From the NCBI RefSeq assembly GCF_050920415.1, contig NZ_CP169309.1: a DNA stretch of 64,000 nt; one strand, written 5' to 3'. The notes beneath the pieces are model-generated. The model had not been told where the DNA came from. It ran no database searches and was given only the letters and a program-made list of their open reading frames with translations. Below, piece by piece: positions 12,096 to 46,741 of this stretch (the stretch's first letter is position 1; each line of letters starts with the position of its first letter). The DNA comes from Escherichia coli (GTDB lineage: Bacteria > Pseudomonadota > Gammaproteobacteria > Enterobacterales > Enterobacteriaceae). The position numbers and the translations under genes are program-made.

Positions 12096-12199
12096 ACGTT
12101 CCTCCTTTATATGAACTCACCGGAGCTGGCTCCGGTGAGGTGTTGTGAACTTAAGTCTGGACGAAATGCCCGAAAACGAAAGTTTGAGGCGTAAAAAGC

Positions 12200-16732: not shown

Positions 16733-17467
16733 GTGGGTAATAATTTAATGCAGACGGATCTTTCCGTCTGGGGTATGTATCAGCACGCCGATATTGTCGT
16801 TAAGTGCGTGATGATTGGGCTTATTTTGGCCTCCGTAGTCACCTGGGCAATCTTCTTCAGTAAGAGCGTTGAGTTCTTCAATCAGAAGCGTCGCCTGAAA
16901 CGCGAACAGCAACTGCTGGCCCAAGCGCGTTCCTTGAACCAGGCCAACGATATCGCCGCTGATTTTGGTAGCAAAAGCTTAAGCCTGCATTTGCTCAATG
17001 AAGCGCAGGATGAGCTGGAACTGTCAGAAGGCAGCGACGATAACGAAGGTATTAAAGAACGTACCAGCTTCCGTCTGGAGCGTCGGGTCGCCGCCGTGGG
17101 GCGTCAAATGGGCCGCGGTAACGGCTACCTTGCAACCATCGGCGCGATTTCGCCGTTTGTGGGCCTCTTTGGTACGGTCTGGGGCATCATGAACAGCTTT
17201 ATCGGTATTGCGCAAACGCAGACCACTAATCTGGCTGTCGTTGCGCCGGGTATCGCAGAAGCTCTGTTAGCAACGGCAATCGGCCTCGTGGCAGCGATTC
17301 CGGCGGTCGTTATCTATAACGTATTTGCACGTCAGATTGGCGGCTTTAAAGCGATGCTGGGTGATGTCGCAGCGCAGGTATTATTGCTGCAAAGTCGTGA
17401 CCTGGATCTGGAAGCCAGCGCCGCTGCGCATCCGGTTCGTGTCGCCCAAAAATTACGCGCAGGATAA
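16733..17467 (+). CDS. exbB: TonB-system energizer ExbB
   Basis: 244-aa ORF (GTG start); matches ExbB. Confidence 0.93.
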   Translation: MGNNLMQTDLSVWGMYQHADIVVKCVMIGLILASVVTWAIFFSKSVEFFNQKRRLKREQQLLAQARSLNQANDIAADFGSKSLSLHLLNEAQDELELSEGSDDNEGIKERTSFRLERRVAAVGRQMGRGNGYLATIGAISPFVGLFGTVWGIMNSFIGIAQTQTTNLAVVAPGIAEALLATAIGLVAAIPAVVIYNVFARQIGGFKAMLGDVAAQVLLLQSRDLDLEASAAAHPVRVAQKLRAG

Positions 17468-17473
17468 TGTTCG

Positions 17474-17899
17474 ATGGCAATGCATCTTAACGAAAACCTC
17501 GACGATAACGGCGAAATGCATGATATCAACGTGACGCCGTTTATCGACGTGATGTTGGTTCTGCTGATTATCTTTATGGTGGCAGCGCCGTTAGCGACGG
17601 TAGATGTGAAGGTGAACTTGCCTGCTTCTACCAGCACGCCGCAGCCTCGTCCGGAAAAACCGGTTTATCTGTCGGTGAAGGCGGACAACTCGATGTTTAT
17701 CGGTAACGAGCCGGTCACCGATGAAACAATGGTTACAGCGCTGAATGCGTTAACCGAAGGTAAGAAAGACACCACTATCTTCTTCCGTGCGGATAAAACT
17801 GTCGATTACGAGACGTTGATGAAGGTAATGGATAAGCTGCATCAGGCAGGTTACCTGAAGATTGGTCTGGTTGGCGAAGAAACAGCCAAAGCGAAGTAA
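17474..17899 (+). CDS. exbD: TonB-system energizer ExbD
   Basis: 141-aa ORF directly downstream of exbB; matches ExbD. Confidence 0.93.
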   Translation: MAMHLNENLDDNGEMHDINVTPFIDVMLVLLIIFMVAAPLATVDVKVNLPASTSTPQPRPEKPVYLSVKADNSMFIGNEPVTDETMVTALNALTEGKKDTTIFFRADKTVDYETLMKVMDKLHQAGYLKIGLVGEETAKAK

Positions 17900-17904
17900 A
17901 GAGA

Positions 17905-18012
17905 ATTGCCTGATGCGCTACGCTTATCAGACCTACATAATATATTGCAACATATTGAATTTGCATGACATGTAGGCCGGATAAGGCGTTTAGACCGCAT
18001 CCGGCAAGAGTT
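17905..18012. repeat. REP (repetitive extragenic palindromic) element cluster
   Basis: Copies of gcctgatgcg...cttatcag and ggccggataaggcg...gcatccggc motifs typical of E. coli REP/BIME. Confidence 0.55.
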
Positions 18013-18022
18013 AAATGCATAA

Positions 18023-18059
18023 TGATGCCCGGTTGCTTTTCGCAACCGGGCATTTTTTT
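18023..18059 (+). terminator. Rho-independent terminator downstream of exbBD
   Basis: 12-bp stem (atgcccggttgc / gcaaccgggcat) followed by a run of 7 T. Confidence 0.6.
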
Positions 18060-18942
18060 AGCCTAAATGTTCGCCGCCGCACACGCCGTGTACTTCTGCA
18101 GTGACATAGCTCGACTCCTGACTTGCCAGATAAACATACACTGGGGCCAGCTCCGCCGGTTGTCCTGCACGTTTCATTGGTGTTTGCTGACCAAACTGCG
18201 GGATCTTATCCTGCGTCTGTCCACCGGAAATTTGCAGTGCTGTCCAGATCGGGCCTGGCGCAACAATATTCACCCGAATACCTTTCTCCGCGACCTGTTT
18301 TGCCAGGCCTCGGCTGTAGTTCAGAATCGCCGCCTTCGTAGCCGCATAGTCCAGTAAATGCGGGCTTGGCTGGTATGCCTGGATTGACGAAGTGGTGATG
18401 ATACTGGCACCTTTCGGTAGCAGGGGGATCGCTTCCTGGGTTAGCCAGAACAGCGCGAAAACGTTAATGGCAAAGGTCTTTTGAAACTGTTCGCTGGTGA
18501 GGTCTGCAATATCAGGAATGGCAACCTGTTTCCCGGCGACCAGCGCCATAATATCCAGCCCGCCTAACGCCTTGTGCGCTTCGTGAACCAGCGAACGGGC
18601 GAATTTCTCATCGCTTAAATCGCCTGGCAGCAGGACGGCTTTGCGTCCACATTCTTCAATGATCTTTTTCACATCCTGAGCGTCTTCTTCTTCCACGGGA
18701 AGATAACTGATCGCTACGTCAGCGCCTTCACGCGCGTAAGCGATGGCGGCAGCACGACCGATTCCGGAATCGCCCCCTGTCACCAGTGCCTTACGATCTT
18801 TCAGGCGACCGCTACCAACATAGGTTTTCTCGCCGCAATCCGGCACTGGTGTCATCTTCGCCTGGATGCCTGGCGTCGGTTGTTTCTGTTTGGGATATTC
18901 ACCAGTGTAATACTGCGTGGTCGGGTCTTTTAAATGAGACAT
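18058..18942 (-). CDS. yghA: Short-chain dehydrogenase/reductase YghA
   Basis: 294-aa ORF; SDR glycine-rich NAD-binding motif (TGGDSGIG); synteny. Confidence 0.9.
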
Positions 18943-28296: not shown

Positions 28297-28630
28297 GTTG
28301 TCGCTTTGCCAAAGCGCCGTTGAAATTATCCAACGGCAGGCGGAGCAGCATGATGTTAAGCGCGTCACCGCCGTGTGGCTGGAAATTGGCGCGCTATCCT
28401 GCGTTGAGGAGAGCGCCGTCCGTTTTAGTTTTGAAATTGTCTGCCACGGAACGGTGGCGCAAGGGTGCGATTTACATATCGTCTATAAACCCGCCCAGGC
28501 CTGGTGCTGGGATTGTAGCCAGGTAGTGGAGATTCATCAGCACGATGCGCAATGCCCGCTCTGTCACGGTGAGCGGTTGCGCGTCGATACCGGCGATTCG
28601 CTAATCGTCAAAAGTATTGAAGTTGAATAA
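28289..28630 (+). CDS. hybF: Hydrogenase nickel-incorporation protein (HypA paralog)
   Basis: Start MHELSLCQ giving 113 aa; CxxC...CxxC zinc motif. Confidence 0.9.
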   Translation: MHELSLCQSAVEIIQRQAEQHDVKRVTAVWLEIGALSCVEESAVRFSFEIVCHGTVAQGCDLHIVYKPAQAWCWDCSQVVEIHQHDAQCPLCHGERLRVDTGDSLIVKSIEVE

Positions 28631-28642
28631 CCGGAGTTAACA

Positions 28643-28891
28643 ATGTGTATTGGCGTTCCAGGCCAGGTGCTGGCTGTCGGTGAAGATATTCACCAGCTTG
28701 CGCAGGTTGAAGTATGTGGTATCAAGCGCGACGTGAATATCGCCCTGATTTGTGAAGGTAATCCTGCCGATCTGCTGGGCCAGTGGGTACTGGTACACGT
28801 CGGATTTGCCATGAGCATCATCGACGAAGATGAAGCCAAAGCCACATTAGACGCACTGCGCCAAATGGATTACGACATTACCAGCGCGTGA
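28643..28891 (+). CDS. hybG: Hydrogenase maturation factor (HypC paralog)
   Basis: 82-aa ORF beginning MCIGVP. Confidence 0.9.
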
Positions 28892-28903
28892 TGATTAGCT
28901 TTT

Positions 28904-28990
28904 GTAGGCCTGATAAGACGCGGCTGCATCGCATCAGGCATTGTGCACGATTGCCGGATGCGGCGTGAACGCCTTATCCGGCCTGGATGG
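28904..28990. repeat. REP element cluster between hybG and yghU
   Basis: ggcctgataagacgcg...cgcatcaggc and gccggatgcggcgtgaacgccttatccggcc palindromic units. Confidence 0.6.
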
Positions 28991-29013
28991 CTTGCTGCGA
29001 CGAACACCAACCC

Positions 29014-29880
29014 TTACCCCTGACGCTTATCTTCCGTATTCGTCTCGAAATCACTGGCGTCATGGCGCTCATGCAACTGCTCATTCAGCGGTCCGTTGGT
29101 GCGGTTAACAATACGCCCACGCTTCACCGCCGGACGCTCGCCTACTTCTTTCGCCCAGCGTTGTACATGCTTATAACTGCCCGCATCAAGAAACTCTGCG
29201 GCATCATACACACCACCTAACACAACGTTGCCAAACCACGGCCAGATTGCCATATCCGCAATGGTGTACTCATCGCCCGCAACAAACTTATGCTGTGCCA
29301 GTTGCTTATCCAGCACGTCGAGCAGGCGCTTGGCTTCCATGGTAAAGCGGTTGATGGCGTATTCAATTTTCACCGGCGCGTAATGGTAAAAGTGACCAAA
29401 ACCACCGCCGAGGAACGGCGCGGCACCCTGTAACCAGAACAGCCAGTTCATTGCTTCAGTACGTTTCGCCAGATCCTGCGGCAGGAAGTAGCCAAATTTC
29501 TCCGCCAGATAAAGCAGAATCGATCCAGACTCAAACACGCGGATCGGCGGAGTATGGGTATGATCGCGTAGCGCCGGGATCTTCGAGTTTGGGTTCACTT
29601 CGACAAAGCCGCTGGAGAATTGATCGCCATCGCCAATACGAATCAGCCAGGCGTCGTACTCTGCACCAGTAACGCCCAGCGCCAGCAGCTCCTCAAGCAT
29701 AATTGTCACTTTCTGACCGTTTGGCGTGCCCAGAGAATAGAGCTGCAACGGGTGCTTGCCCACCGGCAGCGTTTTCTCATGCGTTGGACCAGAAACCGGG
29801 CGATTGATATTGGCGAACGCGCCGCCAGCGGATTTATCCCACGTCCAGACTTTCGCGGGCTGATAAGTATTGTCTGTCAT
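29014..29880 (-). CDS. yghU: Glutathione S-transferase-like disulfide reductase YghU
   Basis: Start moved to internal Met (MTDNTYQPAKV) giving 288 aa as in YghU. Confidence 0.9.
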   Translation of the reverse strand: MTDNTYQPAKVWTWDKSAGGAFANINRPVSGPTHEKTLPVGKHPLQLYSLGTPNGQKVTIMLEELLALGVTGAEYDAWLIRIGDGDQFSSGFVEVNPNSKIPALRDHTHTPPIRVFESGSILLYLAEKFGYFLPQDLAKRTEAMNWLFWLQGAAPFLGGGFGHFYHYAPVKIEYAINRFTMEAKRLLDVLDKQLAQHKFVAGDEYTIADMAIWPWFGNVVLGGVYDAAEFLDAGSYKHVQRWAKEVGERPAVKRGRIVNRTNGPLNEQLHERHDASDFETNTEDKRQG

Positions 29881-31959: not shown

Positions 31960-31994
31960 CCCCGTACTGATTATGAAGAATAGTCAGTACGGGG
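31960..31994 (+). terminator. Hairpin downstream of gss
   Basis: 11-bp stem ccccgtactga / tcagtacgggg with 13-nt loop, followed by A/T-rich sequence. Confidence 0.4.
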
Positions 31995-33735: not shown

Positions 33736-33744
33736 CCTTCCTGA

Positions 33745-33781
33745 AAATGCCCGGTCCTGACGATCGGGCATTTCCATTTTT
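33745..33781. terminator. Bidirectional rho-independent terminator between pitB and yghT
   Basis: 9-bp stem aaatgcccg / cgggcattt followed by T run. Confidence 0.6.
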
Positions 33782-36197: not shown

Positions 36198-37547
36198 TTG
36201 GCGGGGTTTAACATCAAACATTGGTTTGCAGATGGCGCGTTTCGCACCATTATTCGCAATAGCGCCTGGTTAGGCTCCAGTAATGTCGTGAGCGCTTTGC
36301 TGGGTCTGTTGGCGCTCTCGTGTGCCGGTAAAGGGATGACGCCCGCCATGTTTGGCGTACTGGTGATTGTGCAATCGTACGCCAAGTCGATCAGCGATTT
36401 TATTAAGTTTCAGACATGGCAGCTGGTGGTTCAGTACGGAACGCCAGCCTTGACCAATAATAATCCGCAGCAATTTCGCAATGTCGTCTCATTTTCCTTC
36501 TCGTTGGATATCGTCAGCGGCGCGGTGGCGATTGTCGGCGGCATTGCCTTACTCCCTTTTCTTTCCCATTCATTAGGTCTGGATGACCAAAGCTTTTGGC
36601 TGGCAGCGCTGTATTGCACGCTCATTCCTTCAATGGCTTCCTCCACACCGACCGGCATTCTGCGTGCAGTAGATCGCTTCGATTTGATTGCTGTACAGCA
36701 GGCGACGAAACCTTTTCTGCGCGCAGCGGGGAGCGTCGTAGCCTGGTATTTTGATTTTGGTTTTGCGGGTTTTGTTATTGCCTGGTACGCATCGAATCTG
36801 GTTGGCGGCACCATGTACTGGTGGTTTGCCGCGCGCGAATTACGCCGCAGAAATATCCATAACGCCTTCAAATTGAATCTGTTTGAGTCTGCCCGACACA
36901 TTAAAGGCGCGTGGAGTTTTGTCTGGTCAACCAACATTGCCCACTCCATCTGGTCGGCACGTAACTCGTGCAGCACAGTGTTGGTGGGGATCGTGTTAGG
37001 ACCCGCTGCCGCCGGGTTATTTAAAATCGCCATGACATTCTTCGATGCCGCCGGAACGCCAGCGGGTTTACTGGGCAAAAGTTTTTACCCAGAGGTGATG
37101 CGTTTAGATCCGCGTACCACCAGACCGTGGTTGTTAGGCGTGAAGTCCGGTTTACTGGCGGGCGGAATCGGTATTCTGGTGGCGCTCGCGGTGTTGATCG
37201 TCGGCAAGCCGCTCATTTCGCTGGTGTTTGGCGTTAAGTATCTCGAAGCGTATGACCTGATTCAGGTGATGCTTGGCGCAATTGTGATTTCGATGCTGGG
37301 CTTCCCACAGGAGTCATTGCTATTGATGGCGGGAAAACAGCGCGCTTTTCTCGTGGCGCAAACCATCGCCTCAATCGGCTACATCGTATTGCTGTTCATG
37401 TTCTGTCATCTGTTTGGCGTGCTGGGGGCTGCATTTGCTTACTTCGGTGGGCAATGTCTGGATGTGGTGCTCTCGTTAATTCCAACCTTAAAGGCATTTT
37501 TTCAGCGCCATTCCTTGCTTTATAACGCAGCCGGAGAGAAATCCTGA
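36198..37547 (+). CDS. yghQ: Polytopic inner-membrane protein, MOP/Wzx-like flippase family (putative lipid or polysaccharide flippase)
   Basis: 449-aa hydrophobic ORF; ORF-track start is TTG, so true start uncertain; synteny with yghRST. Confidence 0.75.
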   Translation: MAGFNIKHWFADGAFRTIIRNSAWLGSSNVVSALLGLLALSCAGKGMTPAMFGVLVIVQSYAKSISDFIKFQTWQLVVQYGTPALTNNNPQQFRNVVSFSFSLDIVSGAVAIVGGIALLPFLSHSLGLDDQSFWLAALYCTLIPSMASSTPTGILRAVDRFDLIAVQQATKPFLRAAGSVVAWYFDFGFAGFVIAWYASNLVGGTMYWWFAARELRRRNIHNAFKLNLFESARHIKGAWSFVWSTNIAHSIWSARNSCSTVLVGIVLGPAAAGLFKIAMTFFDAAGTPAGLLGKSFYPEVMRLDPRTTRPWLLGVKSGLLAGGIGILVALAVLIVGKPLISLVFGVKYLEAYDLIQVMLGAIVISMLGFPQESLLLMAGKQRAFLVAQTIASIGYIVLLFMFCHLFGVLGAAFAYFGGQCLDVVLSLIPTLKAFFQRHSLLYNAAGEKS

Positions 37548-38371
37548 TGATGAGAAAATATTTCCCGCTTGAGGCGAGCGAGCGTCTATTTATTGCAGTT
37601 GAAGAAGATGATGTCGTTGATGCGCAGGTCAGTTTACCGCCGACTATCGCAACAGGTTGTACCACCGAAATCATTCATGATAATTACGCGTTATGCCTGC
37701 AATTCTGGCTGAATGGCGTTGATCGTCAGGAATTACTGCGTTTAATCCACAAACAAGCCAAAGGCGAGGGGCTTACGGCTGACGAGCGTAAACAGTTTAA
37801 ATATATGCGGGCGCGTTATAAGCATCTACGTTTTGCCCAACGGTTGTATTTAAAAAAGCATCAGGCCGGATTTTTATTTGGCAAAACGACCGTTTTTCTT
37901 GGACGTTTTCAGGACGGCTTTCGTAACGGTAAGAAAAATATTGTGTCGTTTTACGGCAACCTTTTACGGATTTATTTAAGCTCTCCGGTCTAGTTGTTGG
38001 TGAACTATTCATTACGCCATAGCCAGTTAGAAAGCGTAAGCGGTTTTATTGCCTATCGGCAAAAGCAAATGCACCTCCTGAAAGAGATTATTGCCAAACC
38101 ACGGCTAACTGGCAGGGAATTTCATGATGTACGAAAAATAATCAGCCAGCAGGTTTCTTATTACGACACCCTAAGATCGCTTGATCCTGAAAATAAAGAA
38201 GCGTTACAGATTTCCCGCTTCCTCGCCGCCATTAATGGCCTGATGGGGGATAAACACGACGACATGGTGGCGGATGATATGGAAAACCGCCAGTCGTATG
38301 ATGCACCGATGGCGCTGGATAGCGATATTCGTCAGCGCTTAGAACTGCTGATTTCGCGTTTTCCGCTATAA
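37547..38371 (+). pseudogene. Hypothetical protein reading frame (275 codons) interrupted by a single in-frame TAG at 37991-37993; either a nonsense pseudogene or two adjacent ORFs
   Basis: ORF-track ORFs 37547-37993 and 37994-38371 are in the same frame and contiguous; start ATG overlaps the yghQ stop (TGATG). Confidence 0.4.
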
Positions 38372-38379
38372 CCGGAGCA

Positions 38380-38943
38380 ATGATGTCATCTCGTTTGATT
38401 ATTGCGCTGATTATCATGCTCTTAGCCCCGGGTGTGCAGGCGCACAATTTCGTCACTGGTAAAACGGTTACCCCTGTTTATATCCAGGAAGGCGGCGAGC
38501 TGCTTCTGAATAGCGACGACGAAATTCACTACCAAAAGTGGAACAGCACACAGCTGGCGGGAAAAGTCCGCATTATTCAGTATATCGCCGGGCGTAAGTC
38601 GGCGAAGAAAAAGAACTCACTGTTAATTAAAGCGGTTGAAGCGGCAAACTTTCCGCAGGATCGTTTTCAGCCCACCACCATTGTGAACACCGATGATGCC
38701 ATCTTTGGTACTGGCTATTTTGTCGTTGGCAAAATCGAAAAAAATAAACGCCGCTATCCGTGGGCGCAATTCGTTATTGACGGCAATGGACAGGGACGCG
38801 TTGTCTGGCGGTTGCCGGAGCAGAGTTCAACCATTCTGGTGCTGAATAAAGCCGGGCAAATTCAGTGGGCAAAGGACGGCAGCCTGACGCCGGAAGAGGT
38901 AGATCATGTCATTGCGCTGGCGCAGAAGCTGATCAATGAATAA
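38380..38943 (+). CDS. YtfJ-family periplasmic protein (signal peptide)
   Basis: 187-aa ORF; N-terminal signal MMSSRLIIALIIMLLAPGVQA; resembles E. coli YtfJ as I recall it. Confidence 0.6.
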   Translation: MMSSRLIIALIIMLLAPGVQAHNFVTGKTVTPVYIQEGGELLLNSDDEIHYQKWNSTQLAGKVRIIQYIAGRKSAKKKNSLLIKAVEAANFPQDRFQPTTIVNTDDAIFGTGYFVVGKIEKNKRRYPWAQFVIDGNGQGRVVWRLPEQSSTILVLNKAGQIQWAKDGSLTPEEVDHVIALAQKLINE

Positions 38944-38973
38944 AAAACTCAAAGGATTGAGGGCGTTAGTGAG

Positions 38974-40044
38974 ATGAAGCTGGTTGAACACTACATCATG
39001 CGTGGTACGCGCCGTCTGGTGCTGATTATCGTCGGTTTTCTGATCTTTATTTTCGCCAGCTACTCCGCACAGCGTTATCTGACCGAAGCGGCAAATGGGA
39101 CATTAGCTCTTGATGTTGTGCTGGATATTGTTTTCTACAAGGTGCTGATTGCACTGGAGATGTTGTTACCTGTTGGACTGTATGTGTCAGTTGGCGTGAC
39201 GCTAGGGCAGATGTATACCGACTCGGAAATTACCGCTATTTCTGCGGCGGGGGGGAGTCCGGGACGCTTGTACAAAGCCGTTCTTTATCTGGCGATACCG
39301 CTAAGTATTTTTGTCACCCTTCTGTCGATGTATGGTCGTCCGTGGGCTTATGCGCAGATTTATCAACTGGAGCAACAGTCGCAGTCGGAGCTGGATGTTC
39401 GCCAGTTGCGGGCAAAGAAATTTAACACTAACGATAACGGACGAATGATCCTTTCGCAGACGGTTGATCAGGATAATAATCGCCTGACTGACGTGCTGAT
39501 TTATACTTCTACTGCCAATCGAACCCGTATTTTCCGCGCCCGTTCGGTTGATGTAGTTGACCCATCACCCGAGAAACCGACCGTTATGTTGCATAACGGG
39601 ACCGCCTATCTTCTCGATCATCAGGGGCGTGACGACAACGAACAGATCTACCGTAATCTGCAATTGCATCTGAATCCGCTGGATCAAAGCCCTAACGTCA
39701 AACGCAAAGCAAAATCGGTCACGGAGCTGGCGCGCTCCGCCTTTCCTGCCGATCATGCCGAACTGCAATGGCGACAAAGCCGTGGCCTGACAGCATTGTT
39801 GATGGCGCTGCTGGCCATTTCATTAAGTCGGGTAAAACCGCGGCAAGGGCGATTTTCAACGTTATTGCCACTGACGTTGCTGTTTGTTGCCATTTTTTAT
39901 GGCGGCGACGTCTGCCGTACGCTGGTGGCTAACGGCGCGATTCCCCTCATTCCTGGTTTGTGGTTAGTACCCGGACTCATGCTAATGGGCCTGCTGATGC
40001 TGGTCGCACGCGACTTCTCTTTGCTGCAGAAATTTTCCCGATGA
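38974..40044 (+). CDS. LptF-like permease (YjgP/YjgQ family) paralog
   Basis: 356-aa ORF; N-terminal TM then large periplasmic segment then C-terminal TMs, the LptF/LptG architecture. Confidence 0.7.
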   Translation: MKLVEHYIMRGTRRLVLIIVGFLIFIFASYSAQRYLTEAANGTLALDVVLDIVFYKVLIALEMLLPVGLYVSVGVTLGQMYTDSEITAISAAGGSPGRLYKAVLYLAIPLSIFVTLLSMYGRPWAYAQIYQLEQQSQSELDVRQLRAKKFNTNDNGRMILSQTVDQDNNRLTDVLIYTSTANRTRIFRARSVDVVDPSPEKPTVMLHNGTAYLLDHQGRDDNEQIYRNLQLHLNPLDQSPNVKRKAKSVTELARSAFPADHAELQWRQSRGLTALLMALLAISLSRVKPRQGRFSTLLPLTLLFVAIFYGGDVCRTLVANGAIPLIPGLWLVPGLMLMGLLMLVARDFSLLQKFSR

Positions 40045-41120
40045 ATGTTTTCAGTCGCTATTTAATTCGTCATCTCTTTCTCGGTTTTGCCGCCGCCGCA
40101 GGGCTATTGCTGCCGCTCTTTACCACCTTCAACCTGATTAACGAACTGGATGATGTCAGCCCGGGTGGTTATCGCTGGACTCAGGCGGTGCTGGTGGTGC
40201 TGATGACCTTACCGCGCACACTGGTCGAACTTTCGCCGTTTATCGCCTTATTGGGAGGGATTGTCGGCCTGGGGCAGTTATCGAAAAACAGTGAGCTTAC
40301 CGCCATTCGCAGCACGGGGTTTTCTATCTTCCGTATTGCACTGGTGGCGCTGGTTGCCGGGATATTGTGGACTGTTTCATTAGGCACGATAGATGAGTGG
40401 GTGGCGTCGCCATTGCAGCAACAGGCGCTGCAAATCAAATCGACTGCCACTGCGTTGGGGGAGGACGATGACATTACCGGCAATATGCTGTGGGCCAGGC
40501 GTGGTAATGAATTTGTGACGGTGAAATCGCTGAACGAGCAGGGCCAGCCGGTGGGCGTGGAGATATTTCATTACCGCGACGATCTCTCGCTCGAATCCTA
40601 CATTTATGCACGCAGTGCCACCATTGAAGACGACAAAACGTGGATCCTGCATGGTGTGAATCATAAAAAATGGCTGAATGGCAAAGAAACGCTGGAAACA
40701 TCTGATAATCTTGCCTGGCAATCGGCCTTCACCAGTATGAATCTTGAAGAGTTATCGATGCCGGGAAATACTTTTTCTGTCCGTCAACTTAATCATTACA
40801 TCCATTATTTGCAGGAAACCGGGCAACCCAGCAGCGAATACCGCTTTGCACTGTGGGAAAAACTGGGACAACCCATCTTGACCCTTGCGATGATTTTGCT
40901 GGCTGTGCCGTTTACCTTTAGTGCCCCGCGTTCGCCTGGGATGGGTAGCCGTCTCGCTGTAGGCGTCATCGTGGGGTTACTCACCTGGAGCAGCTATCAA
41001 ATCATGGTCAATCTGGGATTGCTATTTGCGTTGAGCGCACCTGTTACCGCGCTCGGTTTACCGATAGCGTTTATGCTGGTGGCGTTGAGCCTGGTGTATT
41101 GGTATGACAGTCAACATTAA
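40041..41120 (+). CDS. LptG-like permease (YjgP/YjgQ family) paralog
   Basis: Start at ATGA overlap with upstream gene (MNVFSRYLIRHL); same architecture; 359 aa. Confidence 0.7.
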   Translation: MNVFSRYLIRHLFLGFAAAAGLLLPLFTTFNLINELDDVSPGGYRWTQAVLVVLMTLPRTLVELSPFIALLGGIVGLGQLSKNSELTAIRSTGFSIFRIALVALVAGILWTVSLGTIDEWVASPLQQQALQIKSTATALGEDDDITGNMLWARRGNEFVTVKSLNEQGQPVGVEIFHYRDDLSLESYIYARSATIEDDKTWILHGVNHKKWLNGKETLETSDNLAWQSAFTSMNLEELSMPGNTFSVRQLNHYIHYLQETGQPSSEYRFALWEKLGQPILTLAMILLAVPFTFSAPRSPGMGSRLAVGVIVGLLTWSSYQIMVNLGLLFALSAPVTALGLPIAFMLVALSLVYWYDSQH

Positions 41121-41154
41121 ACCCGCCGTGGCGCAGCACCACAGCGGGCTCACA

Positions 41155-42327
41155 TTACTGCTTCAGAGTAGCAAATGCCTGAATGATGGCATCGATTTGC
41201 TCACGAGTGTGGGCAGCGTTTACGCTACAGCGCAGCAGCGTGATGCCTGCAGGCGCGGCAGGTGGCAGGATAAGATTCACATAAACGCCCAGCGAAATAA
41301 GCTCGCGCCAGATGCGTAAACCTTCCTCTTTCGAACCGATTATTACTGGCACTACCGGGCTAATATGTGAACTTAACTCGTAACCCAGTTTTTGCAGACC
41401 GTCATACAGATGGCTGGCGTTATCCATCAGCTTTTGCCGCAACTCTGGTTGTGAGGCAATGGTTCTTAACGACGAGCGCACGGTCGCAATGCAGGACGGA
41501 GAAGGAGAGGCGGTAAAAATATACGGGCGGCTGCCGTAGCGCAGCACTTCCATCGCTTCCGAACCGACAGCAAAACCGCCAATCGAGGCCAGACTTTTAC
41601 TGAAAGTACCAACGATAATATCCACATCATCTTCAACGCCAACGGCTTCAGCCAGTCCGCGCCCCGTTGCGCCTAACACGCCAAACGAATGCGCTTCATC
41701 GACAATCAAATAACCACCGAGACGACGTTTGATATCAACAATTTCCGCCAGCGGCGCAACGTCACCGAGCATACTGTAGATGCCTTCAACGATGATAATC
41801 GCCTCTTTTGCCCGTTCACCGAGGCGAACCATGCGCCGTTCCAGATCTTTAGCATCGTTATGGCGGAAACGAATAATTTCCGCTCCACCGAGAGAACAGG
41901 CGTCATAAATACTGGCGTGGCTATCGGCATCCAGTAACACCACGGCGTTATGGTCGGCAAGTGCGCTGATGACACCTAAATTAGCGGTATAACCGGTTGA
42001 AAAAACGATAGCGGTAGGGCGATTGAAAAACTCGGCAATCTCTTTCTCTAACGCCAGATGTGGCGCATAGCTGCCATTAGCCATACGAGAACCGGTAGTG
42101 CCGGTGCCTTGTGCCGCTAATGCTGCCTGACCTTCGGTGATGGCATCATGATTGAAAGTTAAACCGAGATAATTATTAGTCCCGGCCAGAATCACTTTTT
42201 TATTGCCGATACGGCCTTCAGTGGCGGAGTACACTTCATCAATACAGGTACCAAACGGCGTTAATCCGTTGTCACTAAATTGCAGTCGCTCGCCAGCAAG
42301 GCGCGCATATTTATCGTATAGCCCCAT
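41155..42327 (-). CDS. PLP-dependent alpha-oxoamine synthase (serine palmitoyltransferase / BioF / Kbl family)
   Basis: 390-aa ORF; conserved VDEAHSFGVLG and PLP-lysine GTFSKSL motifs. Confidence 0.8.
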   Translation of the reverse strand: MGLYDKYARLAGERLQFSDNGLTPFGTCIDEVYSATEGRIGNKKVILAGTNNYLGLTFNHDAITEGQAALAAQGTGTTGSRMANGSYAPHLALEKEIAEFFNRPTAIVFSTGYTANLGVISALADHNAVVLLDADSHASIYDACSLGGAEIIRFRHNDAKDLERRMVRLGERAKEAIIIVEGIYSMLGDVAPLAEIVDIKRRLGGYLIVDEAHSFGVLGATGRGLAEAVGVEDDVDIIVGTFSKSLASIGGFAVGSEAMEVLRYGSRPYIFTASPSPSCIATVRSSLRTIASQPELRQKLMDNASHLYDGLQKLGYELSSHISPVVPVIIGSKEEGLRIWRELISLGVYVNLILPPAAPAGITLLRCSVNAAHTREQIDAIIQAFATLKQ

Positions 42328-42575
42328 TATTTATTCTCCAGCCATGGAAGTAGAGTTTCCATTAATTGCGCAGGGGTTTTGACATCCAGCAGAATATTAA
42401 TAGGAATGGAAATATCGAATCTGTCTTCCAGCATCATTAAGAGATCCATCACTTTGATCGACTCCAGGCCAAGATCGTTGACGAGATCGCTGTCGGGCTT
42501 AATTTCCACACCGTTTTCGACCAAATCCTGTAAACAGGAAAGGATGTAATCCATTACTATTTCACGATTTACCAT
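42327..42575 (-). CDS. Acyl carrier protein (dedicated, not housekeeping acpP)
   Basis: 82-aa acidic ORF with phosphopantetheine-attachment-like motif DLGLESIKVMDL. Confidence 0.75.
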   Translation of the reverse strand: MVNREIVMDYILSCLQDLVENGVEIKPDSDLVNDLGLESIKVMDLLMMLEDRFDISIPINILLDVKTPAQLMETLLPWLENK

Positions 42576-42606
42576 AGAAACGTTAACACACCTTTAAACA
42601 AGACAA

Positions 42607-43521
42607 TCAAAATAGCCCGCTGCGTAATGCGTGTTCCAGGCTAATCCCGGGAAACCAATTAATATCTTCAGAAATACGGTTATTACTTGCTGACCAGTCG
42701 GCGTGGGTTAATTCACGGATTTTCGAGCGGGTCAGCATAGGTTCTTTACCTGCCAGGCGACTCAACGCGGTACTGATATCCGCAAGGCAGGTGAGTACCG
42801 ACAGAGGAATACCAACCATTCGAACGGAACCGCAACGGGCGTCGGCGGCAAGTTGCTGTACGCGTTGCCAGTCATAGCCGCCGGCGACGCCATCGCATAA
42901 TTCATAGGTTTGCGTTTGTACAGTTTCGGCGCTTAACCACTGCCCCACGGCTTGCGCGAAATCGGTGACGTGCAGGAAAGAGAGCTGTGTATCTGGCGCA
43001 CCAAGTCGTGGCAGCAGGCCGCGCAGCATCCAGCCAAACAGCGGTTTTAACTCTTTATCGCCGGGACCATACACGGCTGTCGGGCGAAAAATGCCCAGCG
43101 TAATTTCGTCAGCCATTGCGGTCAGTCGTTGTTCGGCGACGTGTTTGGAATTTGCGTACCAGGAGAGTTCGGGATGGCGCGCCGCCAGCGAAGAGATAAA
43201 CAGAAAACGTTGGCAAAAGCCGCTCTCTTTTGCCGCTTGCATCAGGCGCAGGCTGCCGTCAACGTTACAGCGGGTAAAAATCTCTTCTTTGTGTCCGCGC
43301 ACTTGCCCGGCGCAATGGACCACCGCGCTGGCTCCGGCAACCAGTTCGCTAAGCGAATGTGTATCTTCCAGCGAACCGCGCACCCAGATGAGATTATCAT
43401 TGACGTGAGCGCGGGCAGTACGCGTCAATGCGCGAACGTGAAAGCCGCGGGCGAGCAGGTTATCGATAATATATTTACCGATAAACCCGGTAGCGCCCGT
43501 CACCGCGACAGTTTGATTCAT
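42607..43521 (-). CDS. NAD(P)-dependent epimerase/dehydratase-family (extended SDR) oxidoreductase; candidate 3-keto reductase
   Basis: 304-aa ORF; N-terminal Rossmann motif VTGATGFIG. Confidence 0.75.
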   Translation of the reverse strand: MNQTVAVTGATGFIGKYIIDNLLARGFHVRALTRTARAHVNDNLIWVRGSLEDTHSLSELVAGASAVVHCAGQVRGHKEEIFTRCNVDGSLRLMQAAKESGFCQRFLFISSLAARHPELSWYANSKHVAEQRLTAMADEITLGIFRPTAVYGPGDKELKPLFGWMLRGLLPRLGAPDTQLSFLHVTDFAQAVGQWLSAETVQTQTYELCDGVAGGYDWQRVQQLAADARCGSVRMVGIPLSVLTCLADISTALSRLAGKEPMLTRSKIRELTHADWSASNNRISEDINWFPGISLEHALRSGLF

Positions 43522-45236
43522 GCCATGGATTCCTGCACATGAAGGCTTGCAGCATAACGTTTTTTCGCTTCCGCACGGGCAGGCTTGCCGGAGGACGTTC
43601 GGGGAATACTGTGGGGCGGCAACAGATCGATAGCCGCTGTTACGCCAAATTCGCTTTGGATCCGTGCTGCCAGTGCGTGGATAAGCTGCCCACGACGTTC
43701 TTCGTCGCTGATCCTACACTGGATCTGCAAAATGATTTTTTCCTGGGCGGTAACAAAAGCAATCGCATCGCCAGAATGAATTTCCGGTTCCTGTTCCGCA
43801 ATATATTCAATATCCTGCGGCCAGATATTACGGCCACGAATAATAATCAGATCTTTAATGCGCCCGGTGACATACAGATAACCATCCAGCAGATAACCGA
43901 GGTCGCCGGTATCTAACCAGCCCGTCGCGGCAATCTCGTCTTGCGAAACCTGGTCGCCAAAGTAACCGCTCATCAGGCTGGGGCCGGAGATGCAAATATG
44001 GCCTACCACACGTTCCGCGACCGGCATACCTGCTTCATTGCGGATTTCAATGCCATGTTCCGGCAACGCTTTACCGCAGTTGACGAAAGTCGATACGGCG
44101 CGTGTTTCAGCACCCGGCGCGACGGCTTTGCCCTGATATTCAAGGATGTCGCGATCCACTTCGTTAACCACAACCCCGGAGGCTTCATCAGAGAAGCTGA
44201 CAGCCAGCGCATTTTCTGCCAGTCCGTAGCACGGCATGAAAGTTTTATCGTCAAAGTTAACCTGACGGAAACATTCAGCAAATTGGTGGAGTTGTTCTGC
44301 GGAGATGGGTTCTGCGCCAATACCAGCGACGCGCCAGCACGAGAGATCCAGTTCAGCGAGATCTTTTTCATTCACGCGGCGCTGACACAATTCATAGCCA
44401 AACGGCGGCGCGACGGAAACTGTGCCACGATTTTTACTGATCAATTTAAGCCATTGCAGCGGACGCATGGCAAAATCCTGAGTGCGCAAATAATCTACTG
44501 AGAGCTGCGTGGCGACGGGGGTCAGGAGAAAGCCGACCAGTCCCATATCATGGTAGAAAGGCAGCCAGGAGACGCAGCGGTCGCCAGGGCGTAATTTAAT
44601 GCCATCGTGGCTTATAGCACGTAGATTAGCCATCACTTCGCGATGGGTGATAATGACGCCACGGGGAAAACGGGTGCTGCCGGAGGTGTACTGGAGGTAG
44701 GCGATATCGTTCGGAACTGGACGCTGGAGTACAACATCGGCTTCCGGTAATGCCTTAAACCAGGCGTGGCTTAAAACATGTAATTCGGGGTTGTTATGCG
44801 TAGCAGCATTGACCAGTGGCAACCACTCATCACCAGTGATAATGGCTGCGGGCTGGCAACTAGCCAGTAAACCTTGCAGTTTAGCGCTCCAGGAATCCCG
44901 CTGACCGACGCCCATTGGAATCGCTAACGGGACGGCGACTAAGCCGGCATACTGGCAGGCAAAAAAAGCCTCTACAAACCCGCTACTCGTTTCGGCAATC
45001 AGCGCCACGCGATCGCCTTTTTTCAGATTTAGTGATAACAACCGCTTCGCACCAGCTTCGGCACACGCTTTTAACGTCTGATATTCCAGTTGATCTTCAA
45101 GTTGGCAACGTCTGTCATAAAAATTCATTCCGGCGCTACTCAGAGCGGCGTAGTCCAAAGCATCAACCAGCGTTGGAAAATCGGCATAGCGCATAGGTAG
45201 GGAATGCGTAAAGATGTTATTAGACATATACACCAC
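43518..45236 (-). CDS. Fatty acyl-AMP ligase / acyl-ACP synthetase (AMP-binding superfamily)
   Basis: 572-aa ORF; AMP-binding signature YTSGSTRFPRGV; overlaps downstream reductase gene by 4 nt. Confidence 0.8.
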   Translation of the reverse strand: MVYMSNNIFTHSLPMRYADFPTLVDALDYAALSSAGMNFYDRRCQLEDQLEYQTLKACAEAGAKRLLSLNLKKGDRVALIAETSSGFVEAFFACQYAGLVAVPLAIPMGVGQRDSWSAKLQGLLASCQPAAIITGDEWLPLVNAATHNNPELHVLSHAWFKALPEADVVLQRPVPNDIAYLQYTSGSTRFPRGVIITHREVMANLRAISHDGIKLRPGDRCVSWLPFYHDMGLVGFLLTPVATQLSVDYLRTQDFAMRPLQWLKLISKNRGTVSVAPPFGYELCQRRVNEKDLAELDLSCWRVAGIGAEPISAEQLHQFAECFRQVNFDDKTFMPCYGLAENALAVSFSDEASGVVVNEVDRDILEYQGKAVAPGAETRAVSTFVNCGKALPEHGIEIRNEAGMPVAERVVGHICISGPSLMSGYFGDQVSQDEIAATGWLDTGDLGYLLDGYLYVTGRIKDLIIIRGRNIWPQDIEYIAEQEPEIHSGDAIAFVTAQEKIILQIQCRISDEERRGQLIHALAARIQSEFGVTAAIDLLPPHSIPRTSSGKPARAEAKKRYAASLHVQESMA

Positions 45237-45598
45237 GAAAAAAATTGGATATCAGAAATAAAATGACAATAATGCGGTGGATTATATAGGCATAAAAGAT
45301 AAATGAGATAGTATTTTCATCGGTGCGATATTGAACATTGATTTAAATAATAGGTTTGGCTTTGTTGTTTTTATTGTGAATTATATTTAATTTATGAATA
45401 TATTAAGAAGAAGCCTTGTTTGGTTGCCTTAAATCGACAAAAGGCATTGAGGCGCTTCTGTGTAGTCTCTGACCTTATCTTAATTATTAATAAATACTAT
45501 TTATTCTTTGTTTGTATTCTTTGGGTTGATTATTAAGATGCCGTTCGTTGCTGTTGCAATCTGTTTGTCACCGTTAATTATTTGTTATCCACAGAGAT
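45237..45598. promoter_or_regulatory. AT-rich divergent promoter region between the acyl-AMP ligase operon and yghO
   Basis: 362 bp, visibly AT-rich with multiple A/T tracts; flanked by divergently oriented start codons. Confidence 0.45.
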
Positions 45599-46741
45599 AT
45601 GGAATGCGATCTGCTGATGATTAAAATTGAAAAAGTAATTAATAAAAATGACCTTAAGGCATTTATCGCTTTTCCGTCATCACTTTATCCCGATGATCCA
45701 AACTGGATACCCCCTTTGTTCATTGAACGCAGCGAGCATTTGTCGGCGAAGAATCCGGGGACGGACCATATTATCTGGCAGGCGTGGGTAGCAAAAAAAG
45801 CGGGGCAGATAGTCGGGCGGATTACCGCGCAAATCGATACCTTGCACCGCGAGCGTTACGGTGACGATACCGGTCATTTCGGCATGATTGACGCCATTGA
45901 TGATCCGCAGGTTTTTGCCGCGTTGTTTGGCGCAGCGGAAGCGTGGTTGAAGTCACAAGGTGCAAGTAAGATCAGCGGGCCTTTCAGCCTGAATATCAAT
46001 CAGGAAAGCGGATTACTGATTGAAGGTTTCGACACTCCGCCCTGTGCGATGATGCCGCACGGTAAACCGTGGTATGCCGCGCATATTGAACAATTGGGTT
46101 ATCACAAAGGTATTGATTTACTGGCGTGGTGGATGCAACGAACCGATCTCACTTTCTCTCCGGCGCTAAAAAAACTGATGGATCAGGTGCGCAAAAAGGT
46201 GACCATTCGCTGCATCAAGCGCCAGCGGTTTGCCGAAGAGATGCTGATCCTGCGTGAGATTTTCAACTCTGGCTGGCAGCACAACTGGGGATTTGTGCCG
46301 TTTACCGAACATGAATTCGCTACCATGGGCGATCAACTAAAGTATCTGGTACCGGACGATATGATCTACGTCGCCGAGATTGATTCTGCTCCCTGCGCGT
46401 TTATAGTCGGCTTGCCGAACATCAACGAGGCGATTGCCGATCTGAACGGAGCGCTCTTTCCCTTCGGCTGGGCAAAATTGCTGTGGCGCTTAAAAGTCAG
46501 CGGTGTGCGAACTGCGCGAGTGCCGCTGATGGGCGTGCGTGACGAGTATCAGTTCAGCCGCATCGGCCCGGTGATTGCGCTGTTATTGATTGAAGCCTTA
46601 CGCGATCCGTTTGCTCGCCGGAAGATCGATGCGCTGGAAATGTCATGGATCCTCGAAACCAATACAGGCATGAATAACATGCTGGAACGCATTGGAGCGG
46701 AGCCGTACAAGCGTTACCGATTGTATGAAAAGCAGATTTGA
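45599..46741 (+). CDS. yghO: YghO, intact; putative GNAT-like acyltransferase (family assignment tentative)
   Basis: 380-aa uninterrupted ORF; synteny next to glcC; K-12 yghO is an annotated pseudogene as I recall. Confidence 0.7.
   Translation: MECDLLMIKIEKVINKNDLKAFIAFPSSLYPDDPNWIPPLFIERSEHLSAKNPGTDHIIWQAWVAKKAGQIVGRITAQIDTLHRERYGDDTGHFGMIDAIDDPQVFAALFGAAEAWLKSQGASKISGPFSLNINQESGLLIEGFDTPPCAMMPHGKPWYAAHIEQLGYHKGIDLLAWWMQRTDLTFSPALKKLMDQVRKKVTIRCIKRQRFAEEMLILREIFNSGWQHNWGFVPFTEHEFATMGDQLKYLVPDDMIYVAEIDSAPCAFIVGLPNINEAIADLNGALFPFGWAKLLWRLKVSGVRTARVPLMGVRDEYQFSRIGPVIALLLIEALRDPFARRKIDALEMSWILETNTGMNNMLERIGAEPYKRYRLYEKQI

Follow-up and report, generated by a model that had tools for sequence, protein, structure and literature searches.

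Results

The present study analyzes palindromic elements that lie just past the stop codons of exbD, hybG and sslE in a 64 kb window of the Escherichia coli chromosome, the window being the whole stretch of DNA analyzed (64,000 nucleotides). It corresponds to positions 3,112–3,166 kb of K-12 MG1655 in reversed orientation and runs from parC to sslE, pppA and the start of gsp. Alignment with K-12 was collinear from parC to pppA, with about 95.7% identity across the 52.6 kb aligned, and the enterobacterial backbone that had been claimed for the segment from its letters alone is thus that of the E. coli chromosome. Gene names were confirmed by RefSeq annotation, in matching records for exbD/yghA and sslE/pppA and via K-12 for hybG/yghU and parC/plsC. 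The original prediction had placed REP-type palindromes after exbD, hybG and sslE and a related inverted repeat after parC, and palindromic units do occur at all four places, within 1–4 nt of where they had been put. The three elements after exbD, hybG and sslE comprise five REPs, every one of them extragenic, between annotated or ORF-defined genes, and the same three gene ends carry REPs in K-12, where they were compared by sequence alignment.

Knowledge of REP/BIME elements in E. coli goes back about 40 years. REPs are extragenic, occur in many copies per genome and are usually transcribed with a flanking gene. They are imperfect palindromes of 30–40 nt with a mismatch within the stem and a GTAG 5′ of the palindrome, which is needed by the REP transposase (PMC3333891); BIME-1 and BIME-2 are defined in the same source. 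Rfam has no generic REP family, and only its models naRNA4 (a BIME-2 unit) and ES036 (a BIME-1 linker) touch the elements studied here, so we made a covariance model of our own, R1, with 21 distinct K-12 REPs as its source, collected in three regions unrelated to this locus (4.30–4.35, 4.23–4.28 and 2.40–2.45 Mb). Its structure is the canonical stem, mismatch, stem, and it was run on both strands of the whole window with filters off. A search with REP models was the check that had been proposed along with the prediction, and over the 64 kb it returned exactly five strong matches, all after exbD, hybG and sslE and all between 39.3 and 52.2 bits, with the next best at 16.1 bits. The best in the window was 61247–61281 on the plus strand (52.2 bits), followed by 28904–28940 (plus, 48.0 bits), 28952–28984 (minus, 45.7 bits), 17972–18006 (plus, 43.4 bits) and 17907–17936 (minus, 39.3 bits, E 4e-10). 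Consensus searches allowing up to 3 mismatches agreed, the y-type consensus matching at 17972–18005, 28953–28986 and 61247–61280 and the z1 consensus at 17908–17936, each with 0 matches in 100 dinucleotide shuffles.

Repetitiveness was assessed with the 110-nt exbD unit, which had a median of at least 40 places per genome (28–66 among the matches listed) in 5425 of 5426 E. coli genomes, 5153 records giving at least 40 pieces; because it recurs tens of times per genome in nearly all of them, the exbD element is genuinely repetitive. Other copies of the same z1-L-y unit, at 80–90% identity to that of exbD, were found in every genome. The REPs fold with the expected internal 2×2 mismatch at between −7 and −24 kcal/mol, the y and z2 types having a 7-bp outer stem, a 2×2 internal loop and an inner stem, and the z1 copy being a shorter version. 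As in the y, z1 and z2 types of REP (or PU) described by Gilson, Bachellier and Hofnung and restated by Ton-Hoang et al. 2012 (PMC3333891), the window copies are imperfect palindromes, here of 30–37 nt, with an internal 2-nt mismatch, placed just past stop codons. They differ from the REP consensus in that two copies have mutated heads and three carry inner-stem substitutions, which is normal variation for the family: GTAG is present in three of the five (at 17972, at 28904 and, on the minus strand, at 17936) and is replaced by CCAG at 28983–28986 (minus strand) and by GTAT at 61247–61250, and inner-stem pairs are broken in three of five in the R1 alignment. The elements at the ends of exbD, hybG and sslE are genuine, ordinary E. 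coli members of the already known REP/BIME family, and their earlier description as ordinary E. coli features holds.

At exbD (stop codon TAA, 17897–17899) a z1-type REP begins 7 nt past the stop and occupies 17907–17936 on the minus strand, on which it reads GTAGGTCTGATAAGCGTAGCGCATCAGGCA, with one mismatch to the z1 consensus and with its head seen as CTAC at 17933–17936 on the plus strand. It is followed by an AT-rich L-type linker of 35 nt (17937–17971) and by a y-type REP with a GTAG head on the plus strand (17972–18006; 3 mismatches in the consensus search), in which two substitutions (GGCGTTTAGACC) weaken the inner stem, with non-canonical inner pairs in the R1 alignment. The y REP folds at −15.8 kcal/mol, and for the exbD 3′ region taken as a whole z was −6.6. 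The Rfam family ES036/CssrF, which models the BIME-1 linker plus adjacent GTAGGCCT, aligns to the linker over 43 of 43 positions at 29.2 bits, below its gathering score of 37.6. A candidate IHF-like site, CAACATATTGAAT, was seen by eye in the linker at 17948–17960 on the minus strand, one mismatch from the consensus WATCAANNNNTTR; a scan for the exact IHF consensus gave 0 matches in the exbD linker and a window-wide count equal to the chance expectation, which makes that scan uninformative. Judged by its sequence, the exbD element is one BIME-1 unit consisting of z1, a 35-nt L-type linker and y in inverted orientation. BIME-1 elements (also RIB/RIP) are described as single copies with a long L linker that frequently binds IHF (PMC3333891), and the exbD element has the same order of z1, L linker and y, likewise in single copy, its candidate IHF site being one mismatch from the consensus. 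After exbD, K-12 has a tandem pair of z1-L-y units (4548–4818 of the extracted K-12 locus L001) where the window has one (17900–18057), and it is the K-12 pair that departs from the single-copy description in the literature.

Downstream of this unit, beginning 18 nt past it, there is an intrinsic terminator of exbBD at 18024–18060 on the plus strand, which is not a REP. It has a GC-rich stem of 12–13 bp with perfect 12-nt arms followed by T7, is the sole terminator-like site in 17400–18400, is conserved in K-12 and overlaps the yghA stop codon (18058–18060, minus strand), yghA being convergent. On these sequence features the end of exbBD is set by the hairpin and T-run at 18024–18060, and since the BIME lies upstream of this separate terminator it would therefore be 3′-UTR content.

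In the sslE-pppA spacer, a y-type REP at 61247–61281 on the plus strand begins 4 nt past the sslE stop codon (TAA, 61240–61242), was detected both by R1 and by consensus, has the head GTAT where K-12 has GTAG, and folds at −24.0 kcal/mol (z = −4.1). The next 66 nt (61282–61347) hold remnants of two further REPs, recognized by alignment to K-12, in which both are intact, and to alleles of other strains. Relative to K-12 the middle REP, of the GCCCGATG type, is deleted and the third keeps only its 3′ half, CCGCATCCGGCA; together the remnants score 7.9 bits with R1 (E about 3) and refold into a different hairpin at 61297–61338. A cluster of REPs had been predicted over 61243–61350, and of this the intact copy at 61247–61281 stands while the rest is remnant. 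The possibility of a second, intact variant REP at about 61290–61347 was rejected on its R1 score and on comparison with K-12 and the alleles of other strains.

The spacer (61243–61371; 9354–9550 of the K-12 locus L003) is a hot spot at which the number of REPs changes among E. coli strains. Strain SCU-316 had seven REPs and K-12 three, GF130 had two and a remnant, and a single REP with remnants was seen in EC12, in ETEC4071 and in the window, whose allele differs from that of EC12 by 18 nt missing between ATCGGG direct repeats. Matches to the spacer spanned 300–625 bp against a query of 301 nt, and arrays of other strains include the GCCCGATG-type REP missing in the window. Alleles close to that of the window appear from sequence to be common, because about 970 genomes match its spacer stretch at 95% identity or more. 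It could be proposed that an array of one to seven REPs is a hypervariable dial that adjusts sslE message and protein against the downstream type II secretion genes, the window allele being a selected setting as opposed to the product of neutral erosion, but we consider this improbable. The sslE array is visibly eroding, and the mutated heads in two of five REPs together with broken inner stems in three of five look, as far as sequence can tell, like neutral decay and not like maintained function.

The gene pppA lies 129 nt downstream of sslE on the same strand, and scanning of the spacer gave no terminator-like and no promoter-like site. A report on ETEC describes sslE as transcribed in a polycistronic mRNA with downstream type II secretion genes (PMC5012682), and co-regulation of sslE with downstream secretion genes has also been noted (PMC3707838). 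Because pppA is co-directional, because the spacer has no terminator or promoter signal and because co-transcription has been reported, the sslE REP is to be classed as intercistronic and does not lie at the end of an operon. The REPs of malE-malF and hisJ-hisQ are the classic intercistronic cases with differential expression within an operon. The sslE REP is like them in starting 4 nt past a stop codon and in having on either side co-directional genes that are reported to share a polycistronic unit, and is unlike them in being reduced to one intact copy in the window strain and in that a role in expression would be assigned to it by analogy.

The inverted repeat downstream of parC had been called related to the REPs, and this did not hold up. 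It is a hairpin at 2386–2415 with a perfect stem GCCGGATGA...TCATCCGGC and no T-run, was not called by the terminator scan, folds at −17.2 kcal/mol (z = −5.6) and is identical in K-12. A similar GCCGGATGA...TCATCCGGC stem occurs in a hairpin after glcA (56198–56224), which with its T-rich tail (TTCATTCTTTGTT) covers 56198–56237 on the plus strand and has a fold of −18 kcal/mol (z = −5.9) and 8.7 bits with R1. Both hairpins might be degenerate REPs of the same family, as the outer stem GCCGGATG...CATCCGGC is common to them and REPs and their length (30 nt) is similar, as by visual comparison about 21 of 30 positions agree with a y REP, as a repeat search groups the parC hairpin with y REPs at 64% identity, and as it is the sixth-best R1 match in the window (16.1 bits, E about 0.009). 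Rather, that score comes from the 7-bp outer stem alone: the inner 18 positions of the R1 model are replaced, the hairpin lacks a GTAG head, and its stem pairs perfectly without the internal mismatch. Moreover, the 101-nt stretch around the hairpin had a median of 1 place per genome in 5425 E. coli genomes. The parC hairpin is a single-copy, locus-specific element and not a REP, and the one after glcA, with its low score and terminator-like tail, is probably the terminator of the glc operon and not a REP either, so that degenerate REP ancestry is an unlikely explanation for the pair. Since the GCCGGATG stem is shared by these two non-REP hairpins, sharing it is therefore insufficient for REP status.

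At hybG (stop codon TGA, 28889–28891) a z2-type REP with a GTAG head lies 12 nt past the stop at 28904–28940 on the plus strand, found by R1 and as part of a match to naRNA4, with one inner-stem pair broken relative to K-12 in the alignment. It is followed by an 11-nt linker of BIME-2 type (28941–28951), aligned to the naRNA4 (Y-l-Z2) linker, and by a y-type REP at 28952–28986 on the minus strand, which had 2 mismatches in the consensus search and matched R1 from model position 3 on. The head of this y REP is CCAG and not GTAG (CTGG on the plus strand), as it is in K-12; it folds at −21.3 kcal/mol (z = −3.9) and is 27 nt from the stop codon (29014–29016) of the convergent gene yghU. Neither a terminator-like nor a promoter-like site was found for the hybG-yghU spacer in a scan of 28500–29400. 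On the minus strand, 28907–28983 matches the Rfam family naRNA4 (RF02564; gathering score 59.5) along the full 77 positions of its model with 87.1 bits; naRNA4 is the 77-nt Y-l-Z2 unit of REP325, a BIME-2 (Qian et al. 2015, PMC4550694). From its parts as read in the DNA, the hybG element is one BIME-2-type unit of z2, 11-nt linker and y. Like the unit of REP325 it has y, a short linker and z2 over 77 nt with a full-model match, whereas REP325 is a tandem array of six and the hybG-yghU element is one unit, between convergent genes. The tandem multi-copy organization of BIME-2 is thus not seen at hybG, with one unit in the window and one in K-12.

The naRNA4 match raises an alternative explanation, that the hybG-yghU element is a gene for a naRNA4-like nucleoid-associated small RNA acting with HU, and that the exbD linker is perhaps an ES036/CssrF-like RNA. 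The match is above the gathering score and on the minus strand, which is the sense strand of yghU, the exbD linker gives its sub-threshold match to ES036, and it has been reported that naRNA4 condenses DNA with HU and that most REPs are transcribed (PMC4550694). However, the naRNA4 family is simply the Y-l-Z2 BIME-2 unit, such that any BIME-2 would match, and the near-palindromic nature of the unit gives the plus strand of hybG-yghU 55 bits as well. There is only one unit here as compared with six in REP325, there is no promoter-like site in the region scanned, and the ES036 match falls below threshold. This makes a dedicated small-RNA gene quite unlikely.

Discussion

Patterns detected in the window are best explained as a whole by ordinary REP/BIME palindromes lying past three stop codons, to which we assign a probability of about 0.93, with the functional steps supplied by analogy with the family. 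The original prediction went further in having the REP clusters mark operon ends, and this is true loosely for exbBD and hyb, so that two sites out of three are genuine operon ends, but it fails at sslE, which is followed by pppA on the same strand, and even at exbBD the end is set by the separate hairpin. At most other gene ends in the window the hairpins are of an ordinary, non-REP kind, as at gss (31960–31994), pitB/yghT (33742–33776) and glcA (56192–56230). That the palindromes are themselves Rho-independent terminators defining operon ends, as the original prediction implied, is very unlikely, for although REPs come directly behind the genes that close exbBD and hybOABCDEFG and form stable GC-rich hairpins, none of the five has a T-run after it and none was called by the terminator scan, exbD has its own canonical terminator further downstream, the sslE REP is followed by a same-strand gene in a cluster reported as one operon, and the elements recur as a sequence family (at least 40 per genome) as opposed to being locus-specific hairpins. 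The REPs at these sites are not terminators.

As members of the REP/BIME family, the elements may be expected to act at several levels. The REPs would be transcribed in the upstream mRNA and would fold to stem-loops blocking 3′-to-5′ exonucleases, stabilising the upstream message, and the sslE REP would in this way favour the sslE message over those of the downstream secretion genes. Stabilisation of mRNA by REPs, and the division into 3′-terminal and intercistronic classes, have been reviewed (PMC12306157). In addition, a REP less than 16 nt past a stop codon makes ribosomes stall and so lowers translation of the upstream gene (Liang et al. 2015, cited via PMC12306157). Distances from stop codon to REP were 7 nt for exbD, 4 nt for sslE and, for hybG, 12 nt to GTAG or 16 nt to the first stem pair. 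By analogy, stalling of terminating ribosomes would reduce translation of exbD and sslE, both clear cases, while hybG is borderline because its gap of 12–16 nt, depending on the definition used, straddles the 16-nt limit.

As DNA, the BIME-1 linker at exbD is a likely, predicted IHF site, and the BIME-2 unit at hybG is likewise a predicted contact site for gyrase and of the HU/naRNA type. BIME-2 units are known gyrase targets. They have also been described as HU/naRNA4 contact points (PMC4550694). Gain and loss of REPs at these sites presumably occur via a REP-associated tyrosine transposase together with slippage at short direct repeats; a gene for such a transposase (TnpA-REP/RAYT) is absent from the 64 kb window.

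The practical gain is correct annotation, in that a REP at a gene end is not to be read as a terminator or an operon boundary. Differences in REP number between strains at exbD-yghA and sslE-pppA show fast growth and erosion of arrays. Beyond annotation the importance of the finding is small, as REP/BIME elements are already known.

Several other observations concern the window as a whole. Identity to K-12 varies along it, from 97.3% at parC-ftsP to 93.6% over glc-sslE, and the exbD-yghA stretch has just 90–95% identity in most complete E. coli genomes. Because divergence is uneven and because exbD-yghA is only 90–95% identical in most genomes, the comparison suggests a rare or mosaic lineage. 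Strain MFDS1022581 (NZ_CP169399.1) was the sole complete genome 100% identical over the tested stretches.

Two large segments distinguish the window from K-12. Between ftsP and ygiQ there is an extra segment of about 2.45 kb (4803–7257) where the K-12 spacer is 110 bp, and among 5426 complete E. coli genomes only 13 have it. Two ORFs lie in this segment, both on the plus strand, at 4853–6277 (474 aa, with a hydrophobic N-terminus) and 6521–7213 (230 aa), and they are paralogous, sharing 29% identity across about 200 aa (E = 5e-27). For both, Pfam, NCBIfam and PADLOC gave no match, and RefSeq labels both as membrane or hypothetical proteins or, in some strains, as ankyrin repeat domain-containing protein. 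The second segment, 8.4 kb at 37267–45638, is without K-12 counterpart, K-12 having an IS5 copy between truncated yghQ and yghO. An ORF of the Polysacc_synt family at 36198–37547 aligns in its 5′ part to K-12 yghQ and has the rest in this segment, which also encodes a YtfJ_HI0045 protein, an LptF/LptG-like permease, a class I/II aminotransferase, an NAD-dependent epimerase/reductase and an AMP-binding enzyme. The idea that REPs flank these large indels (4.8–7.3 kb and 37.3–45.6 kb) was rejected, with 0 R1 REP matches at the junctions.

Finally, two small RNAs were matched at gathering level in Rfam, C0719 RNA at 54205–54426 (minus strand, 285.6 bits) between glcB and glcA and the ES173 sRNA at 12134–12197 (minus strand, 99 bits) between dkgA and yqhD. 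Three diverged 41-nt direct repeats, with 73–76% identity to the reference copy, lie at 9678–9984, inside and beside a small minus-strand ORF (9587–9868) in the region of the yqhH lipoprotein.
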